From: Candidatus Nanoarchaeia archaeon
GTDB taxonomy: Archaea; Nanobdellota; Nanobdellia; Pacearchaeales; GW2011-AR1
Length of the DNA: 64,000 nt
Reading direction: 5' to 3'
Assembly: GCA_028711165.1 (NCBI GenBank)
Contig: JAQTST010000001.1
Span: 78,708-142,707 of the forward strand
This document shows, piece after piece, positions 3,194 through 52,389 of this stretch. Below the pieces are notes generated by a model that ran no database searches, had not been told where the DNA came from, and saw nothing but the letters and a program-made list of their open reading frames with translations. The first letter of the stretch is position 1; each line of letters begins with the position of its first letter. The translations under genes were made by a program, and so were the position numbers.

Positions 3194-3271
3194 CATATTT
3201 TTTTAGAAAGAGAAGAAAAATCTTTGATTCGATTTCATATTGTTTTTATAGTTATAATTCTAAGAAAGTAT

Positions 3272-3538
3272 ATGAAAAATGTTTCTAAAACCGAGGCTGA
3301 AAAAGAAATCAAAAATTTTTTTGAAAAAATAAAACATAAATCTCCGAGGGAAATTAAGAAAATAAAGAAGCTGGCAATGAGCCGTAATATTCCACTTAAA
3401 GAAGGACGGAAATTATTCTGCAAATATTGTTTTGTCCCCCATTCGGGGAAAGAAAAAATCAGGATAAAAAATAAGATTAAAAGTATAACATGTGATAATT
3501 GTAAAAAAATATCGAGATGGAAAATTAAGCTTTCTTGA
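3272..3538 (+). CDS. rnp4: RNase P protein component 4 (Rpp21/RNP4 family)
   Basis: C-terminal 88 aa of track ORF 2933..3538. The N-terminal part of that ORF overlaps tRNA-Leu and 5S rRNA and is discarded. A basic helical N-terminus is followed by a zinc ribbon, CKYC..(24)..CDNC, the Rpp21 pattern. Confidence 0.6.
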   Translation: MKNVSKTEAEKEIKNFFEKIKHKSPREIKKIKKLAMSRNIPLKEGRKLFCKYCFVPHSGKEKIRIKNKIKSITCDNCKKISRWKIKLS

Positions 3539-3722
3539 ATTTTCCTACTAATTCTACTAAATCAGTTTGCCCGAGGAACATTGCTCTGCAACATGCCCTT
3601 TCCAAGCCAAGCTCGTCCATAACTTTTTTCGGATTTTCTCCGCTGGAGATTCTTTTTTTGAAATCTTCCCAAAGGTGGCCGATTGGCTTTCCGCATGAAA
3701 AACATCTCACTGGAATTATCAT
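3525..3722 (-). CDS. rpoN: DNA-directed RNA polymerase subunit N (Rpb10 homolog)
   Basis: MIIPVRCFSCGKPIGHLWEDFKKR..LERACCRAMFLGQTDL is the conserved RpoN/Rpb10 sequence. Confidence 0.95.
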   Translation of the reverse strand: MIIPVRCFSCGKPIGHLWEDFKKRISSGENPKKVMDELGLERACCRAMFLGQTDLVELVGKFKKA

Positions 3723-3797
3723 AATATTATCCCTTATTCTCGGTTTATAAAACTTTTGAAAGAGAAGATTTAAAAATTGAGATTGGAAGAGAAATAT

Positions 3798-4517
3798 ATG
3801 GAAACAGATAATGTAATTGAATTAAAGAACGTTGCGAAATATTATGAAATGGGTGAAGAGACAGTCAAAGCTCTCGATGAAATTAACATTGAAATAAAGA
3901 GGGGAGATTTTGTTGCAATAATGGGCCCTTCAGGAAGCGGGAAATCTACAGGTATGAATTTGATTGGAAGTCTTGATTTGGCGACCAAAGGAAATATTTA
4001 TCTCGACGGACACGACATTGAATATTTGGAAGAATCAGAACTTGCTCAGATAAGAGGGAAGAAAATTGGTTTTATATTTCAGCAATTTAATCTTATTCCT
4101 AACTTAACTGCGAAGGAAAATGTCATGCTTCCGATGCTGTTTCAGGAGAAGGATGAGACAGACAGAGAGATAAGAGCCGAGGAACTTTTGAAACTTGTTG
4201 AACTCGAAAGCAGGATGAATCATTATCCGAATCAACTTTCAGGTGGACAGCAACAGAGAGTAGCAATTGCAAGAGCCTTGGCAAATGATCCCGAAGTAAT
4301 CCTAGCAGACGAACCGACAGGAAATTTAGACACGCACACAGGGGAGATGGTAATGGCTTTTCTAAACAAGCTTAACGACGAGGGGAAAACTATAATTATT
4401 GTTACACATAATCCTGAACTTGCAAAAGAACATGCAAAAACAATCTATTCTGTCAGAGACGGGAAAATTGAAAGTGTCGAGAAAAAAGTTAAAGGGAAAT
4501 GGACTAAGCACAGATAG
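3798..4517 (+). CDS. ABC transporter ATP-binding protein (MacB/LolD-FtsE type)
   Basis: Walker A GPSGSGKST, signature LSGGQQQRVAIARAL, Walker B ILADEPT. The first ATG was taken instead of the track's alternative start at 3777. Confidence 0.9.
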   Translation: METDNVIELKNVAKYYEMGEETVKALDEINIEIKRGDFVAIMGPSGSGKSTGMNLIGSLDLATKGNIYLDGHDIEYLEESELAQIRGKKIGFIFQQFNLIPNLTAKENVMLPMLFQEKDETDREIRAEELLKLVELESRMNHYPNQLSGGQQQRVAIARALANDPEVILADEPTGNLDTHTGEMVMAFLNKLNDEGKTIIIVTHNPELAKEHAKTIYSVRDGKIESVEKKVKGKWTKHR

Positions 4518-5446: not shown

Positions 5447-6663
5447 TTCCTGTGAAAAAAGATTATTTTGTTCTCGCACTGGGAAATCTTAAACACAGAG
5501 GAGTAAGATCCTGGCTGACTATTCTCGGAGTTTTTATTGGAATTGCTGCTGTTGTTGCACTTATAACTTTAGGAAATGGATTAAGAGAAGTAATTACAGA
5601 TCAATTCTCGACGTTATCTACTGACAAACTTACAATATTAAATGCAGAAACAGGTATGGGGCCTCCTGGAAGCACAGCGATAACAAAACTGAACGAACAC
5701 GACGTTGAAATAATAGGCGGAGTAAATGGCGTCGATGAAACCATTCCGCGATGGATAAGAATAGCTGAAATGGAATTTAACAAGAATGTAAATTTTGGTT
5801 ATTTAGCAAACATTCCTAATGATGCAAAACAATCAGAAATTATTCAGGAAAATCTTGAAGTTGAATTTGGAAGATGGTTAAAACTAGAAGACAGAGGGAA
5901 AATTATTCTTGGAGCGCATATGGCAAAGGAAGAGGTTTTTGGCAAGGAAGTAAAAGCAGGAGATAAAATTTTGATTAAAGGAAAAAGTTTTGAAGTTATT
6001 GGAATTCTAAAAGCAGCGAGTTCTTTTCAGGTTAATGCAGTTGTGTTGATGAATGAAAAAGATATGAAAGAATTGCTGGATATTAATGACGAATATGATA
6101 TGATTGTTGTTCAGGTTTCTGATTCAGAAGATACAGAAATTATTGCAGAGAGAATAAAAAATGCGTTAAGAAAAGATAGAAATGAAGATGTTGGAGAAGA
6201 AGATTTTTCTGTTCAGACACCATTACAGGCAATTTCTGGAGTCAATACTATCTTAGATATAATTAATTTAATCGTCGCTGGAATCGCTGCAATCTCTTTA
6301 ATTATTGGAGGAATGGGAATTGCTAACACGATGTATACTTCTGTCTTAGAGAGAACCAAGGAAATTGGAATTATGAAATCAATTGGAGCAAAAAATAAAG
6401 AAGTACTTTACATTTTTATTATTGAATCAGGACTGTTAGGATTAATTGGAGGAATTATCGGGGCAGTTCTGGGAATTGGGCTTGCATTTGGAATTTCAGC
6501 TGTTGCAAATTTGGCTTTTGGTTCTGAGATTTTAAAAGTTACATTGGAATATCCTTTAATTTTTGGCTCTATTGCTTTTGCGTTTATTATTGGATTACTT
6601 TCAGGATTAATGCCGTCATTTCAGGCAAGTAAATTAAAACCCGTCGATGCACTAAGGAAATAA
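5443..6663 (+). CDS. ABC transporter permease, FtsX/MacB family
   Basis: N-terminal TM, a large extracytoplasmic domain and a C-terminal FtsX 3-TM module (..GGMGIANTMYTSVLERTKEIGIMKSIGA..). Confidence 0.85.
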   Translation: MIPVKKDYFVLALGNLKHRGVRSWLTILGVFIGIAAVVALITLGNGLREVITDQFSTLSTDKLTILNAETGMGPPGSTAITKLNEHDVEIIGGVNGVDETIPRWIRIAEMEFNKNVNFGYLANIPNDAKQSEIIQENLEVEFGRWLKLEDRGKIILGAHMAKEEVFGKEVKAGDKILIKGKSFEVIGILKAASSFQVNAVVLMNEKDMKELLDINDEYDMIVVQVSDSEDTEIIAERIKNALRKDRNEDVGEEDFSVQTPLQAISGVNTILDIINLIVAGIAAISLIIGGMGIANTMYTSVLERTKEIGIMKSIGAKNKEVLYIFIIESGLLGLIGGIIGAVLGIGLAFGISAVANLAFGSEILKVTLEYPLIFGSIAFAFIIGLLSGLMPSFQASKLKPVDALRK

Positions 6664-7938: not shown

Positions 7939-7997
7939 ATGACAGAAAATAGAAAATTTTCAGCACAAATACAAAACCTTGGGGGTTTTGCATAATG
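7939..7997 (+). promoter_or_regulatory. Mini-ORF/hairpin coupling cassette, copy 1 (MTENRKFSAQIQNLGGFA*, stop TAA overlaps the next ATG)
   Basis: ATGACAGAA...TTTTCAGCACAAATACAAAAC-CTTGGGG-GTTTTGCATAATG. Stem CAAAAC/GTTTTG. One of four near-identical modules in the window. Confidence 0.6.
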
Positions 7998-20386: not shown

Positions 20387-20650
20387 CTAAACTAAATCTT
20401 CTTCGGAAACTATTACAAAATCACCGATGGCAATTATTGAATTGTAAGGAATTAAAAGCTCGTGGCTGCTTGTTCTTTCTAAATTAAGATTATTTGTATA
20501 AGGAGTAGGATCTTTAACTAAAAGATTAATTAATTCTCCGGATTTAGTCTCGAAAGTTATGTCTTTGACAAAACCTAATCTTTTTCCTTCTTTTGTTACA
20601 ATCATTTTTCCCATAAGAGAAGTATAAGTATTTTTAGTTCCTTGTTGCAT
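20387..20650 (-). CDS. PRC-barrel domain protein
   Basis: ..GKMIVTKEGKRLGFVKDITFETKSGELINLLV..LIPYNSIIAIGDFVIV.. has the PRC-barrel pattern. A second paralog lies at 41547..41825. Confidence 0.65.
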   Translation of the reverse strand: MQQGTKNTYTSLMGKMIVTKEGKRLGFVKDITFETKSGELINLLVKDPTPYTNNLNLERTSSHELLIPYNSIIAIGDFVIVSEEDLV

Positions 20651-20797: not shown

Positions 20798-21195
<398 letters not shown>

Positions 21196-29491: not shown

Positions 29492-30789
29492 AAAAATTAA
29501 TTTTATTTTTTGCTGTGTTATTTTTGATAAGTTTTGTCTGCGCTGAAGTGCAGTATCCTATTGCTGAACTGGGAAATTGTGCTGATGAATCTGCATGTAA
29601 AATTTATTGTGATGATGTAAATAATATGGAAACTTGTCTGGATGTTGCTGAAGAAACTGGTTTAATGACTGACGCAGAAGTTGAAGAGGCTAGAATGTTT
29701 TTGCCATTTTTACTTTCTGGGGAAACTCCTGGCGGATGCGGAACTCCTGATGACTGTGATCTCTACTGTGATAATGAAGCAAATATTAATGAGTGTGTTG
29801 ATTTTGCTTTGAAGGCAGGAATTATCGACGCTGAAGAAGCAGAGATGGTTAAGAGGACAGGAGGAAAAGGACCTGGAGGATGTCAGGGAGCAGTAGAATG
29901 TGATAATTATTGCGAGGATGAATCTCATATTACCGAATGTGTTGACTTTGCACTTCAATATGGAATGATTTCTGCAGAGGAAGCAGAGATGGTTAAGAGG
30001 ACAGGAGGAAAAGGACCTGGTGGATGTCAAGGAAAAGAAGAGTGCGATTCTTTTTGTCAAGATAAAGCAAATTTTGAAACTTGTATAGATTTTTCAGTTC
30101 AAAATGGATTTATGTCGGCAGAGGAAGCAGAAATGGTTAAGAAAAGTGGCGGGGAAAGTCCTGGGGGATGTGGAAACAAAGAAGAGTGTGATGCCTTCTG
30201 CAGCAGCGAAGAAGGAAGAGAAGTTTGTCTTGAATTTTCTTATGAGCACGGAATGATTAGTGAAGAAGAATATAATAAAATTAAAGAAGGCGGCGGGCAG
30301 GGAATGTGGGCTGGACCTGGAGGATGCACAAGCGAGGAAGAATGTCAAGCATATTGTGAATCAGGAGAACATATGCAGGAATGTATGGATTTTTCATTAG
30401 CAAATGGATTTATGAGTCAAGAGGAATATGATCAACAAATGGCAGATTGGCAAAGGTATCAGGAAGAAGGCGCTCCTACTGGAGATGAAAATGCGCCTGG
30501 AGGAGAACCTGGAAGTTATGAACCTGGCGAAGAAAGTGGAGTCCCTGGAGGCGAAGGAATTCCTGGAGAAGCACCAGGAGGGGAAGCAGGAGATTATGAA
30601 GTCCCACCAACTGAAGCACCTACTGGTGAAGGCGGAGAAACACCCGAAGAAGTATATGTGCCTCCTGTTGAAGTTCCTGCTGGTGAAGTTGGTTCTGGCG
30701 GAGAAGCACCAGTTACAGGAGAAGTAATAGCCAGACAAAAACAAACTGGAAATGGGTTAATTAATTTTATAAAAAATCTTTTTAATTAA
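29488..30789 (+). CDS. Secreted protein with six tandem 4-Cys repeats and a Pro/Gly/Glu-rich tail
   Basis: Signal peptide, then a repeat unit GGCxxxxxCDxYCxxxxxxxECxDFAxxxGxISAEEAEMVKRTGGKGP x6 (24 Cys). Two units share ~50 nt of identical DNA (29836.. and 29977..). Confidence 0.6.
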   Translation: MKKLILFFAVLFLISFVCAEVQYPIAELGNCADESACKIYCDDVNNMETCLDVAEETGLMTDAEVEEARMFLPFLLSGETPGGCGTPDDCDLYCDNEANINECVDFALKAGIIDAEEAEMVKRTGGKGPGGCQGAVECDNYCEDESHITECVDFALQYGMISAEEAEMVKRTGGKGPGGCQGKEECDSFCQDKANFETCIDFSVQNGFMSAEEAEMVKKSGGESPGGCGNKEECDAFCSSEEGREVCLEFSYEHGMISEEEYNKIKEGGGQGMWAGPGGCTSEEECQAYCESGEHMQECMDFSLANGFMSQEEYDQQMADWQRYQEEGAPTGDENAPGGEPGSYEPGEESGVPGGEGIPGEAPGGEAGDYEVPPTEAPTGEGGETPEEVYVPPVEVPAGEVGSGGEAPVTGEVIARQKQTGNGLINFIKNLFN

Positions 30790-44273: not shown

Positions 44274-44390
44274 CATACTAAAATAAAACCTCTCTGGTTT
44301 AAAATTGTTTGTTTTTAATTTCTCTTTTGAAATACAATTGCAAAATATATTTTGCATAATATATAAAAACTCTTTCTTATTATTTTATCG

Positions 44391-45810: not shown

Positions 45811-46287
45811 ATGGCAAAAGAGTATGGGAGAGAAGCAATAAGAGATGAAGCGTGGAATTTGGAAAGCCGAGCTTCTAATTTGGCAAAGAAACTTGGTAAG
45901 GATTATTTTAAAGGTTCAACAAATATCGCGAGAGAAGTGTCTGATTTATACAAAGAAGCAGCAAAACTTTATGATAAAATAGGAGATTCGAAAAAGATGA
46001 GAGAATTATCTAAATTATCTAAATCTTATGAAGAGAATATTATTAAAGGTTATAATCAAATGTTTTCAGGTTTTCACGGAAAAAAATCCCGCTTCAAAAA
46101 TGTCGAATGGAACACTTTTGCATTTCTGTCGATAACTTCTCTCGCGTTTGCATTAATTTTTATTTCACTTAATCTGACAGGAAATGCAATTGGCGGGATA
46201 ACTTTGAATGACTCAAGATGGATAAGCATTTGTTTTTTCCTCTGCGGTTTGCTTTTTGCATTTTTTTATTTGAGAAATAAGAAGTAA
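45811..46287 (+). CDS. Helical (TPR-like) N-domain + 2-TM C-terminal anchor protein, paralog 1
   Basis: Its C-terminal 50 aa are nearly identical to those of 48648..49136. Confidence 0.5.
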   Translation: MAKEYGREAIRDEAWNLESRASNLAKKLGKDYFKGSTNIAREVSDLYKEAAKLYDKIGDSKKMRELSKLSKSYEENIIKGYNQMFSGFHGKKSRFKNVEWNTFAFLSITSLAFALIFISLNLTGNAIGGITLNDSRWISICFFLCGLLFAFFYLRNKK

Positions 46288-46329
46288 AATTATACAAAAT
46301 AATTTAAACTTTGCAAATTTCTTTTCTTA

Positions 46330-48647: not shown

Positions 48648-49136
48648 ATGACTGAAGACTCTAAAAAAACTGCAGATATTTATGAAAAATATGCCCAACT
48701 ATTCCTCAAAGAAAAAAATTATCCTAAAGCAACAAACGCTTATGAAAATGCGGGGGATTATTGGGAGAAAAAAGGAGAAATTCGAAATGCAATAAAAGAT
48801 TATGAAGATGCTTTGAGATATGTTTCCAATAAAGAAGACCAAACTAGAATTAAAAACAAAATGGAAAAATTGCATTTTGAGCGGGTAAAAATTTTGGGGC
48901 GTCTTGAACAAATGAAACAGGATATTGTAACCAAGAAGCCGAGAAAAGGACTTCGAGATAAACTTTATTCATCTCTATCAATAGCTTCTCTTGCGTTTGC
49001 ATTAATTTTTATCTCACTTAATCTGACAGGGAATGCAGTTGGTGGGATAACTTTGAATGATTCAAGATGGATAAGCATTTGTTTTTTCCTCTGCGGATTA
49101 TCTTTTGCATTTCTTTACCTCAAGAATAAGAACTAA
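48648..49136 (+). CDS. Helical (TPR-like) N-domain + 2-TM C-terminal anchor protein, paralog 2
   Basis: ..SLAFALIFISLNLTGNAVGGITLNDSRWISICFFLCGLSFAFLYLKNKN. The DNA at 48988..49096 is ~90% identical by eye to 46141..46247. Confidence 0.5.
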   Translation: MTEDSKKTADIYEKYAQLFLKEKNYPKATNAYENAGDYWEKKGEIRNAIKDYEDALRYVSNKEDQTRIKNKMEKLHFERVKILGRLEQMKQDIVTKKPRKGLRDKLYSSLSIASLAFALIFISLNLTGNAVGGITLNDSRWISICFFLCGLSFAFLYLKNKN

Positions 49137-49190
49137 ATTGCTTTGAGAAGATTTTTATAATTGTATTTTGTAATTATAACAGAGGTGATT

Positions 49191-51552: not shown

Positions 51553-51721
51553 AATCGCAGAATTAACCGTCGAACAACTGATAAAAATAATTCTCGGAAT
51601 TCTCGTAGTTGTGGCTGTCTCAGTCGGACTTTATTTTTTCTTCAAGGATAAAATTATAGAATTTTTTCAGGGATTGTCTCCTCCTGAAATTTTTCGGGTT
51701 TTAATAAATGATAAAAGATAA
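51539..51721 (+). CDS. Small TM protein (needs a TTG start; uncertain)
   Basis: Track ORF with a hydrophobic helix ..LIKIILGILVVVAVSVGLYFFF... Confidence 0.3.
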   Translation: MEEDKIAELTVEQLIKIILGILVVVAVSVGLYFFFKDKIIEFFQGLSPPEIFRVLINDKR

Positions 51722-52199
51722 ACGCGGATTTTTACTTGGGGAAGAAACTCTGAAGATGGTAATTGCGGTAATCTGCATTGTTTTTTTGGTTTATCTTCTG
51801 GTTGCGGTTTATCTTAATGTTACAGGACAGCAGAAGCTGAAAGAAGCGCAGGCAATTGTAAACGGCGAGCACGGAATTATTGCTGAAATAAACAGGCTTA
51901 ATCTCGGGGGAAATTATAGTGCAGACGGATTAGTCGTGCCAAATCCTGCTGACTGGTATGTTTTTAGTTTTGTCGGCGACGATAAAAAACCAAATTCATG
52001 CATCCAGCAAAACTGCATCTGCATCTGCGAAAATGCTTTTCCTGATTTGTTTGACTGGCAGATAAAAAGATGCGATGAAAAAGGAGTCTGCTCCAACGTC
52101 GGAAATCTGCAAAAATTTGAAAAGATGAAAATAGAAAAGGCAGGAATTATAATTTCAATCAACAAAGTAAATGAACAGATAATAATCGAAAAAAAATGA
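51708..52199 (+). CDS. Pilin-like protein
   Basis: MIKDKRG|FLLGEETLKMVIAVICIVFLVYLLV.. plus a Cys-containing globular part. Confidence 0.55.
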   Translation: MIKDKRGFLLGEETLKMVIAVICIVFLVYLLVAVYLNVTGQQKLKEAQAIVNGEHGIIAEINRLNLGGNYSADGLVVPNPADWYVFSFVGDDKKPNSCIQQNCICICENAFPDLFDWQIKRCDEKGVCSNVGNLQKFEKMKIEKAGIIISINKVNEQIIIEKK

Positions 52200-52290
52200 C
52201 TGAACAGGAAATTCACTTCAGACAGGAAGTCAGCCGTTCCGCACAGAAATGCGGACAGCACAAATACAAAATAGGAGATTTTGCATAATG
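52196..52290 (+). promoter_or_regulatory. Mini-ORF/hairpin coupling cassette, copy 4 (30 codons, variant)
   Basis: Its ATG overlaps the upstream TGA. It reads ..CAGCACAAATACAAAAT-AGGAG-ATTTTGCATAATG and has an extra hairpin TCCGCA-cagaaa-TGCGGA. Confidence 0.6.
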
Positions 52291-52389
52291 AGTCTCGACG
52301 ATATGATAAAATATATAATTTGGATTGCATTTTTTATCTTAGCTCTTGCCGGATTATATTTTGTGCTTAAGCAGATAGGAGTACTATGA
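52288..52389 (+). CDS. 33-aa single-TM peptide (below the track cutoff)
   Basis: MSLDDMIKYIIWIAFFILALAGLYFVLKQIGVL*. It starts at the cassette TAATG, and its stop overlaps the next ATG. Confidence 0.4.
   Translation: MSLDDMIKYIIWIAFFILALAGLYFVLKQIGVL

Follow-up and report, generated by a model that had tools for sequence, protein, structure and literature searches.

A translated mini-gene cassette of DPANN archaea as a candidate natural termination–reinitiation coupler

A short element, here called the cassette, occurs in four copies in a 64,000-nucleotide (nt) stretch of DNA from a Candidatus Nanoarchaeia archaeon (GenBank assembly GCA_028711165.1, contig JAQTST010000001.1, positions 78,708 to 142,707; the whole stretch is referred to as the window). 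The cassette is probably a cis-acting module for translation initiation and coupling, that is, a natural termination–reinitiation coupler: a very short translated cistron whose sole job would be to bring a ribosome to the start codon of the next gene. A typical cassette is about 51 nt long and contains a mini open reading frame (mini-ORF) of 15–20 codons (30 in copy 4). From 5′ to 3′, the consensus consists of AUGAC(A/U)GAA, hairpin 1 (GAAAn..nUUUC), the block AGCACAAAUA, hairpin 2 (CAAAAy, loop, rUUUUG) and CAUAAUG. Related copies were found in many other contigs, and together they apparently make up a large, undescribed family of translated mini-gene cassettes in DPANN archaea. With a GC content of 34%, the window is AT-rich; it was placed among these archaea on the basis of its own rRNA and tRNA genes, found by an Rfam search, and of the relatives found.

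Copy 4 (positions 52196–52290) was the subject of an earlier note, which had read it as evidence that RNA structure and an open frame are under selection whereas the encoded peptide is not. Its parts are as follows.

52196–52288 (+): mini-ORF, 30 codons plus TAA, translated as MTEQEIHFRQEVSRSAQKCGQHKYKIGDFA and ending ..TTTGCATAATG
52196–52199 (+): ATGA overlap of the mini-ORF start with the TGA of the upstream 163-aa ORF (51708–52199)
52200–52216 (+): hairpin 1, CUGAA-CAGGAAA-UUCA, from the covariance-model alignment, with helix-1 covariation in the family
52214–52257 (+): in-frame insertion of exactly 42 nt (14 codons) relative to the QHKYK short form, boundaries ambiguous by 2 nt
52219–52233 (+): insertion hairpin A, CAGAC-AGGAA-GUCAG; the stem has an internal A.A mismatch, the loop is Shine–Dalgarno (SD)-like
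52238–52255 (+): insertion hairpin B, UCCGCA-CAGAAA-UGCGGA, present in both the minimum free energy and the centroid folds
52256–52266 (+): conserved block CAGCACAAAUA, read here in the frame Q-H-K-Y
52267–52283 (+): hairpin 2, CAAAAU-AGGAG-AUUUUG, with a U-A closing pair that is C-G in the other three copies
52273–52277 (+): SD sequence AGGAG in the hairpin-2 loop, 10 nt 5′ of the downstream AUG
52286–52290 (+): UAAUG, the mini-ORF stop overlapping the start of a 33-aa membrane-peptide ORF (52288–52389)

The covariance model matched copy 4 over 52196–52290 with 50.1 bits (E 3.8e-12). The 30-codon ORF, both hairpins and the ATGA/TAATG chaining described earlier all hold on re-reading, and the insertion with its own hairpin, previously put at about 40 nt, is refined to the 42 nt given above with the hairpin at 52238–52255. 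Copy 4 without this insertion is identical to a common short form, the cassette in locus L116. The basal pairs of hairpin 1 (C-G, U-A and G-C) have an alternative closure across the insertion to 52256–52258. Insertions homologous to that of copy 4 were found in loci L006, L036, L095, L103 and L077, and the homologues of hairpin B are stems of different sequence at the same position (UCGUUCG/CGAGCGA, UCAUUCG/CGAAUGA and UCGCCGAG/CUCAGCGA). Because the homologous insertions keep a hairpin at one position while its sequence differs, they provide further covariation. Insertion hairpin A occurs at 11 distinct places across the window and the fetched loci. The insertion module of copy 4 (CAGAUAGGAAAUCAGCC plus the hairpin) also occurs at L016 4882 (+), outside any recognisable cassette. 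A Pfam search of the genes next to copy 4 returned no families; the neighbours had been called pilin-like, a tentative label based only on N-terminal signal-peptide-like features.

The three other copies in the window are the following.

7939–7997 (+): copy 1, intergenic, 68 nt past a permease-like ORF and 5′ of a 58-aa zinc-ribbon-like ORF, 70.8 bits
12224–12276 (+): copy 2, chained ATGA/TAATG from a 122-aa ORF to the gene for ribosomal protein L13 (Pfam), 80.7 bits
42439–42491 (+): copy 3, intergenic, 5′ of a 183-aa membrane-protein ORF, 77.5 bits

We take the 122-aa ORF upstream of copy 2 to be L18e. The four copies in the window compare with 0.03 expected by chance for the block with up to three mismatches. 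When the covariance model was run on the window with filters off, it returned only these four copies (80.7 to 50.1 bits) and one weak relic at 44327–44361 (+) (18.6 bits, E 0.009), which reads UUGAAAUACAAUUGCAAAAU-AUA-UUUUGCAUAAUA. This relic lies in an intergenic region and keeps the hairpin-2-like end, but neither a following ATG nor a mini-ORF is present; the site may represent a cassette in decay. Two TTTTGCATAATG-like sites, at 20643 and 50268 (−), were rejected as cassettes.

An exact-pattern scan of one genome per species gave 30 loci, of which 25 were true cassettes, in 10 metagenome-assembled genomes (MAGs) assigned to Pacearchaeota, Woesearchaeota or ‘Nanoarchaeota’; one MAG alone holds 11 cassettes, and the remaining five loci were chance matches in bacteria. 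A second scan, in which the 5′ half was fixed and the 3′ end left free, showed that at least 120 metagenome contigs carry the cassette. Applied to the fetched DNA, the covariance model identified about 190 copies on contigs of Pacearchaeota, Woesearchaeota and Nanoarchaeota. No Rfam family matched any copy in the window at the gathering threshold, and around copy 4 only chance-level matches appeared up to E = 10. The class of archaeal C/D box small RNAs was considered and rejected: of 59 cassettes, 46 have AUGACAGAA at the 5′ end, the 3′ end reads CAUAAUG, and no UGAUGA/CUGA pair is present.

Several variants were observed among the fetched loci. Members of a second subfamily start with ATGAAAAAYAGGAAATTTT.. 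(MKNRKF..; loci L100, L120, L021 at 5493–5551, L078, L024, L025 and L116 among others) and have in common with the main family only the end, ..AUACAAAAy-SD-rUUUUGCAUAAUG. They are usually the first unit of a tandem pair, ahead of an MTE-type cassette, and some carry an AAUGUCCUC.. insert. At least three further insert modules of 36–70 nt, each with hairpin potential, lie inside cassettes of unrelated genes, and the mini-ORF is always open (loci L040, L047, L072, L079 and L118; L065, L107, L112, L135 and L148; L071, L080, L130, L141 and L146). Examples are GCGAUUACGCAUACGCAUCGCGAAACAC.. and GGGUUCACUAUGUUCCCCCUAAUUCGCUUACGCAAAUUAAAC, and a 249-nt version is found in L032. In MAG E14, hairpin 2 has a genome-specific long loop.

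The two-hairpin structure was evaluated in 59 distinct canonical cassettes, with 500 shuffles and slid partners as controls. The results showed that 87.5% of the cells held a standard pair, compared to 79.5% in the shuffled sets, and that 67 cells had changed on both sides, compared to 26.1 ± 4.6; none of the 500 shuffles reached either value. The covariation score was 0.175, against 0.053 for shuffled alignments and no more than 0.051 when the partners were slid. Selection on RNA structure, as claimed for copy 4, is thus borne out in this larger alignment. The compensatory change noted there in the closing pair of hairpin 2, where CAAAAT-AGGAG-ATTTTG stands in place of the CAAAAC-AGGA/AGGT-GTTTTG of copies 2 and 3, is a recurrent alternative in the family, with C-G in 29, U-A in 19 and A-U in four cassettes. 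In hairpin 1, a mismatch position is A.A in 46 of the 59 cassettes and U-A in the other 13. RNAalifold independently predicted both hairpins. The stem energies are weak (−5 to −12 kcal/mol, z-scores −1.1 to −2.5), and what argues for the structure is covariation, not folding energy.

The reading frame was examined in 105 cassettes that were delimited by a hidden Markov model with no ORF condition imposed. The length from ATG to stop is a multiple of three in 92 of these cassettes, and only five contain an in-frame stop, in keeping with the proposed selection on an open frame. Stop triplets numbered six in the ATG frame, 139 in the second frame (105 of them from the constant ATGA, leaving 34) and 80 in the third. 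Counted by length, the frame is maintained in 25 of 36 length classes and in 101 of 114 unique sequences. The insert modules stretch the mini-ORF to 87–249 nt, and the frame is open in all of them. The block is translated in three frames among the copies, giving SAQIQN, QHKYK or STNTK. Between the ATG and the block lie 16–22 nt, with all three residues modulo 3, and the part that runs from the block to the stop has the complementary residue. Because insertions and deletions on either side of the block compensate in this way, it is the frame itself that is kept. The frame switch that had been noticed in copy 4 is real in that QHKYK is read there, but it is one of three family-wide frame classes and not a peculiarity of this copy. 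Its cause had been seen in a longer loop; it is the 5′ part, 1 nt shorter, that switches the frame, and the 1-nt longer loop restores it.

The conserved ATG-to-stop ORF would also be expected of a functional micropeptide gene present in many copies. We regard this explanation as barely credible, since one block yields three peptides and amino-acid changes are driven by stem covariation; moreover, gene callers hardly ever report the mini-ORFs and none has a name. Of five long mini-ORF peptides, two were present in the protein collection, both unnamed. The peptide sequence is not conserved across frame classes, so the earlier statement that the peptide itself is not selected stands, and the comparisons as a whole support a reading in which selection would act on RNA structure and an open frame. 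To that reading the present analysis adds the SD sequence in the hairpin-2 loop, the lineage-wide family at genes of the translation apparatus, and the frame class property.

A short leader ORF, with a hairpin followed by UUUU right before the gene, also calls to mind a ribosome-dependent transcription attenuator, in which translation of the leader would decide termination at hairpin 2 and its U-run. The cassette resembles trpL-type attenuators in having a short translated ORF before a gene and RNA hairpins, but it lacks conserved regulatory codons and terminator/antiterminator pairing, and it serves many unrelated genes. No codon is conserved or shared among the copies and three frames are used. 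RNAalifold and single-sequence folds gave two independent hairpins and no mutually exclusive pairings. The U-run, which varies from 3 to 5 nt, is the 3′ arm of the hairpin-2 stem, and many copies lie within operons, coupled to an upstream stop. In addition, archaeal intrinsic termination is not known to need hairpins. Taken together, attenuation is a highly improbable explanation.

Signals for the downstream gene lie at the 3′ end of the cassette. In 77 of 83 cassettes the hairpin-2 loop matches the SD consensus AGGAGGUGAUCC over 4 nt or more, in 64 over 5 nt or more, and this SD sequence lies mostly 8–10 nt 5′ of the main AUG, inside the mini-ORF. The 3′ end of the 16S rRNA of a cassette-bearing contig reads ..GGAUCACCUCCU. 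The junction is UAAUG in 126 of 165 unique cassettes; among the others, the main AUG starts 1 nt ahead of the mini-ORF stop in four (GCAUGA-type), and in six the two are 1–4 nt apart (GCAUAAAGAUG, GCAUAGAGAUG). For ribosomal protein L13, comparison with Pfam showed that the downstream AUG is the true N-terminus. At the mini-ORF start itself, an SD-like tetramer at −14 to −5 is present in only 15–28% of the non-tandem copies, the remainder having either a TATA box about 27 nt 5′ of the start or a preceding stop codon that abuts it. Among the long ORFs of the window, only 16 of 73 have an upstream SD-like tetramer, compared to a background of 12%. Many same-strand gaps in the window measure 30–60 nt. 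The low use of SD sequences and gaps of this size would fit a mostly leaderless organism in which the cassettes give a sizeable share of the SD sequences.

The position of the cassettes is exact: a promoter or an upstream gene on the 5′ side, the start codon of the next gene on the 3′ side. Of the unique copies, 68 are no more than 12 nt away from the stop codon that ends a long ORF upstream, in many cases as ATGA, and 23 are in tandem, following another cassette. In the 69 non-coupled copies, a TATA-like hexamer starts at −34 to −25 in 40–58%, compared to 10% of the coupled copies. This TATA box lies about 27 nt 5′ of the mini-ORF, a spacing which implies that the transcript would start at or near the mini-ORF AUG. 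The genes downstream, as identified by Pfam, include those for ribosomal proteins L13, L19e, L22, S13, L1 and S9, four kinds of tRNA synthetase, SecY, the proteasome, SBDS and ribonucleotide reductase. Many further downstream genes presumably encode ribosomal proteins, as recognised by eye from their N-termini. One ribosomal-protein operon carries four cassettes at consecutive junctions, which we take from the translations to be L2/S19, S19/L22, L22/S3 and S3/L29. At locus L103, the cassette 5′ of an L13 gene (protein 68% identical to that of the window) follows a 123-aa ORF, in a junction of the kind seen for copy 2. Cassettes are also found 5′ of transporters, a glycosyltransferase and pilus genes.

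The distribution of the cassettes could alternatively reflect a selfish, miniature mobile element whose insertions fall precisely on start codons and which stays silent by means of its own start, SD sequence and stop–start overlap. Such an element would account for near-identical sequences in many copies before unrelated genes, for the 23 unique tandem copies, for the ATG at both ends and for the same insert modules in cassettes of different genes. It would also account for orthologous junctions that differ in presence or absence of the cassette. However, the ends ATGACAGAA and TTTGCATAATG are not inverted repeats, the flanks share only the ATG and an A-rich run, no target duplication beyond the ATG was found on reading the ends, and no association with a transposase was seen. 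A miniature inverted-repeat transposable element was rejected, as there are neither terminal inverted repeats nor a target-site duplication. A scan of viral contigs gave a single chance match, inside a coding region, and the cassettes are concentrated at essential, highly expressed genes. The similarity among copies also argues against mobility. Cassettes that precede orthologous genes on separate contigs resemble each other more than random pairs do (0.885 vs. 0.849, p = 0.001), and those before L22 are 98–100% identical where the proteins are only 53–66% identical. Copies in the same genome are no more alike than copies on different contigs (0.852 vs. 0.849, p = 0.22), so homogenisation within genomes is not supported overall. 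Likeness at orthologous sites without likeness within a genome points to long residence under strong purifying selection at the nucleotide level, not recent spread. A mobile element is therefore an improbable origin for the family as it stands.

As for the favoured explanation, a termination–reinitiation coupler would work in four steps. A ribosome would be positioned at the mini-ORF AUG, either by leaderless initiation, with the AUG at the transcript's 5′ end or directly beside it, or after having just terminated upstream, the stop of the preceding gene overlapping or abutting the mini-ORF AUG. It would then translate the 15–20 codons (30 in copy 4), melting the two weak, A-U-rich hairpins on the way, and terminate at the UAA that overlaps the main AUG. 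Finally, the small subunit would be held by the SD sequence of the hairpin-2 loop, 8–10 nt upstream, and would re-initiate on the main gene. At the level of nucleotides, the comparison of copies shows selection for the two hairpins, for an open frame whichever frame is used, for the SD sequence and for the proximity of stop and start, as well as placement at promoters and gene junctions and concentration at housekeeping genes. From these features we infer that the mini-ORF is translated and that the main gene depends on its translation. The invariant AGCACAAAUA block may act as a ribosome tether or as the site of a trans-acting regulator.

Several observations weigh against such a coupler. The nucleotide conservation of the block exceeds that of neighbouring ribosomal-protein genes, which coupling alone does not explain. 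At the SBDS/Rrp4 junction, several contigs carry a cassette, L158 carries a diverged copy and L159 lacks one, and at the L4/L23 junction a cassette precedes L23 in L066 and is missing in L036; the cassette is therefore dispensable at a given site. About 10–15% of copies are out of frame, with stops mostly 5–15 nt past the main AUG. Furthermore, the SD sequence is exposed in the loop and the main AUG is unpaired, so ribosomes may initiate on the main gene independently, and the mini-ORF could be a modulator of that initiation and not its driver.

The conservation of the block above the level of adjacent ribosomal-protein genes would be expected if the cassette were a regulon-wide regulatory leader, whose block and hairpins bind a trans-acting protein or small RNA and coordinately switch the translation of ribosomal-protein and further housekeeping genes. 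Functionally, such a leader would be like the eukaryotic 5′ terminal oligopyrimidine (5′TOP) motif, with the mini-ORF and coupling serving as its output stage only; it is compatible with a coupler, to which it adds a regulator. The clustering of cassettes at genes for translation, transcription, protein export and degradation, the conserved A.A mismatch of hairpin 1 (46 of 59) and the recurrence of extra hairpin modules in cassettes of unrelated genes point in the same direction. On the other hand, no factor emerged as a candidate, the genes served also include those for transporters, a glycosyltransferase and pili, and the diverged copy of L158 keeps the architecture without the block: its MTE start, hairpin 1, hairpin with the SD sequence in the loop and ATGA overlap are kept, and the block is lost. 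We consider a regulatory leader unlikely.

Coupling by reinitiation has precedents. Strict termination–reinitiation coupling, with a contribution of the SD sequence to reinitiation, has been shown for overlapping genes of Haloferax (Huber et al., 2019, PMC6728339). The cassette shares with overlapping archaeal and bacterial gene pairs the ATGA/TAATG overlaps, the SD sequence inside the upstream frame and a host that otherwise makes little use of SD sequences (PMC6728339). It differs from them in being a dedicated cistron of 15–20 codons with conserved RNA structure and sequence instead of an ordinary coding neighbour, and in being reused at dozens of genes per genome, also at promoters. The synthetic bicistronic design (Mutalik et al., 2013, as reviewed in PMC8601185) likewise has a short fore-cistron, a second SD sequence near its end and a stop–start overlap, and is used as a standard part before many genes. 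In contrast to that design, the cassette is natural and archaeal, usually has no SD sequence for its own fore-cistron (the start being leaderless or coupled to an upstream stop), and contains two covarying hairpins and an invariant block that are absent from the synthetic part.

A third parallel is seen in TURBS elements (termination upstream ribosome-binding sites) of caliciviruses and of influenza B segment 7, in which motif 1 contacts the loop of helix 26; the Gtx element contacts the arm (PMC3035654). Both TURBS and cassettes occupy about 45–50 nt right upstream of UAAUG, lie within a translated region, are weakly structured with a motif in a hairpin loop, and have complementarity to small-subunit rRNA. 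However, the cassette belongs to chromosomal contigs of archaea, where ribosomal-protein operons and rRNA genes are its neighbours, and not to a eukaryotic virus, and eIF3 has no part in it. Its clear tether is the SD–anti-SD pairing, and its candidate match to helix 26 is at the 3′ arm, not the apical loop.

This match was obtained by comparison with the complete 16S rRNA from one cassette-bearing contig. The best duplex of the block, UCAGCAC/GUGCUGA, one mismatch and AAUAC/GUAUU (12 of 13 nt, −16.2 kcal/mol), falls on the 3′ arm of helix 26. Only six of 1,000 shuffled blocks matched this pairing, yet 15% of random 18-mers from the window did so, and the stretch that pairs with helix 26 lies partly in hairpin 1. 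Helix 26 is identical in all four 16S sequences obtained; five 16S-adjacent loci were fetched, and the complete sequences were 95–98% identical overall. No unusual pairing was found between the block and 23S rRNA, 5S rRNA or the 5′ domain of 16S rRNA, nor between the 5′ or 3′ end of the cassette and either rRNA. The pairing with helix 26 is suggestive, a lead and not a result. An archaeal, genome-wide counterpart of TURBS, in which the 30S subunit would be tethered both by SD–anti-SD pairing and by the AGCACAAAUAC block on the 3′ arm of helix 26, is accordingly put forward as a tentative and rather doubtful extension. If it were true, dozens of housekeeping genes, centred on translation, would share one globally tunable, rRNA-tethered reinitiation switch, and rRNA-tethered reinitiation, known to date from viruses of eukaryotes, would be an ancient strategy of the cell in DPANN archaea.

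No prior description of the cassette was found in the searchable full-text literature on DPANN archaea, Pacearchaeota and Woesearchaeota. The class of mechanism is known; what appears to be undescribed is a cellular cassette of this kind that is conserved, modular and lineage-wide. If the termination–reinitiation coupler is correct, a whole archaeal lineage uses one standardised, reusable part for initiating translation of its core genes, with the same design that synthetic biologists invented independently as the bicistronic design and with a relation to viral TURBS. It would also show how largely leaderless archaea with small genomes start translation on internal and on highly expressed cistrons, and in uncultivated DPANN archaea the genes served would become a candidate regulon for the translation apparatus. 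For annotation, the cassette would show where genes truly start and, at promoters, where transcription probably starts.

Other features were observed outside the cassettes. On locus L158, positions 3260–4042 (+) hold a 260-aa gene with domains of regions 2 and 4 of bacterial sigma-70, between the genes for RNase J and the proteasome alpha subunit; a sigma-70-type gene is unusual for an archaeon. In the window, a 173-nt direct repeat (87% identical) occurs at 46116–46288 and 48965–49137, 2.8 kb apart, and its second copy covers the C-terminal membrane anchor of a 162-aa ORF just upstream of the pilus-like cluster. An Rfam tRNA match at 2303–2443 (−) spans 141 nt and was not reported by ARAGORN; it is probably an intron-containing archaeal tRNA. 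At 29752–30183, a 144-nt unit is present in three tandem copies, the other two being 76% and 62% identical to the first; a related piece of 45 nt lies at 30382, and the array probably reflects a repeated protein domain. An (ATA)n microsatellite of about 70 nt lies at 20901–20969.

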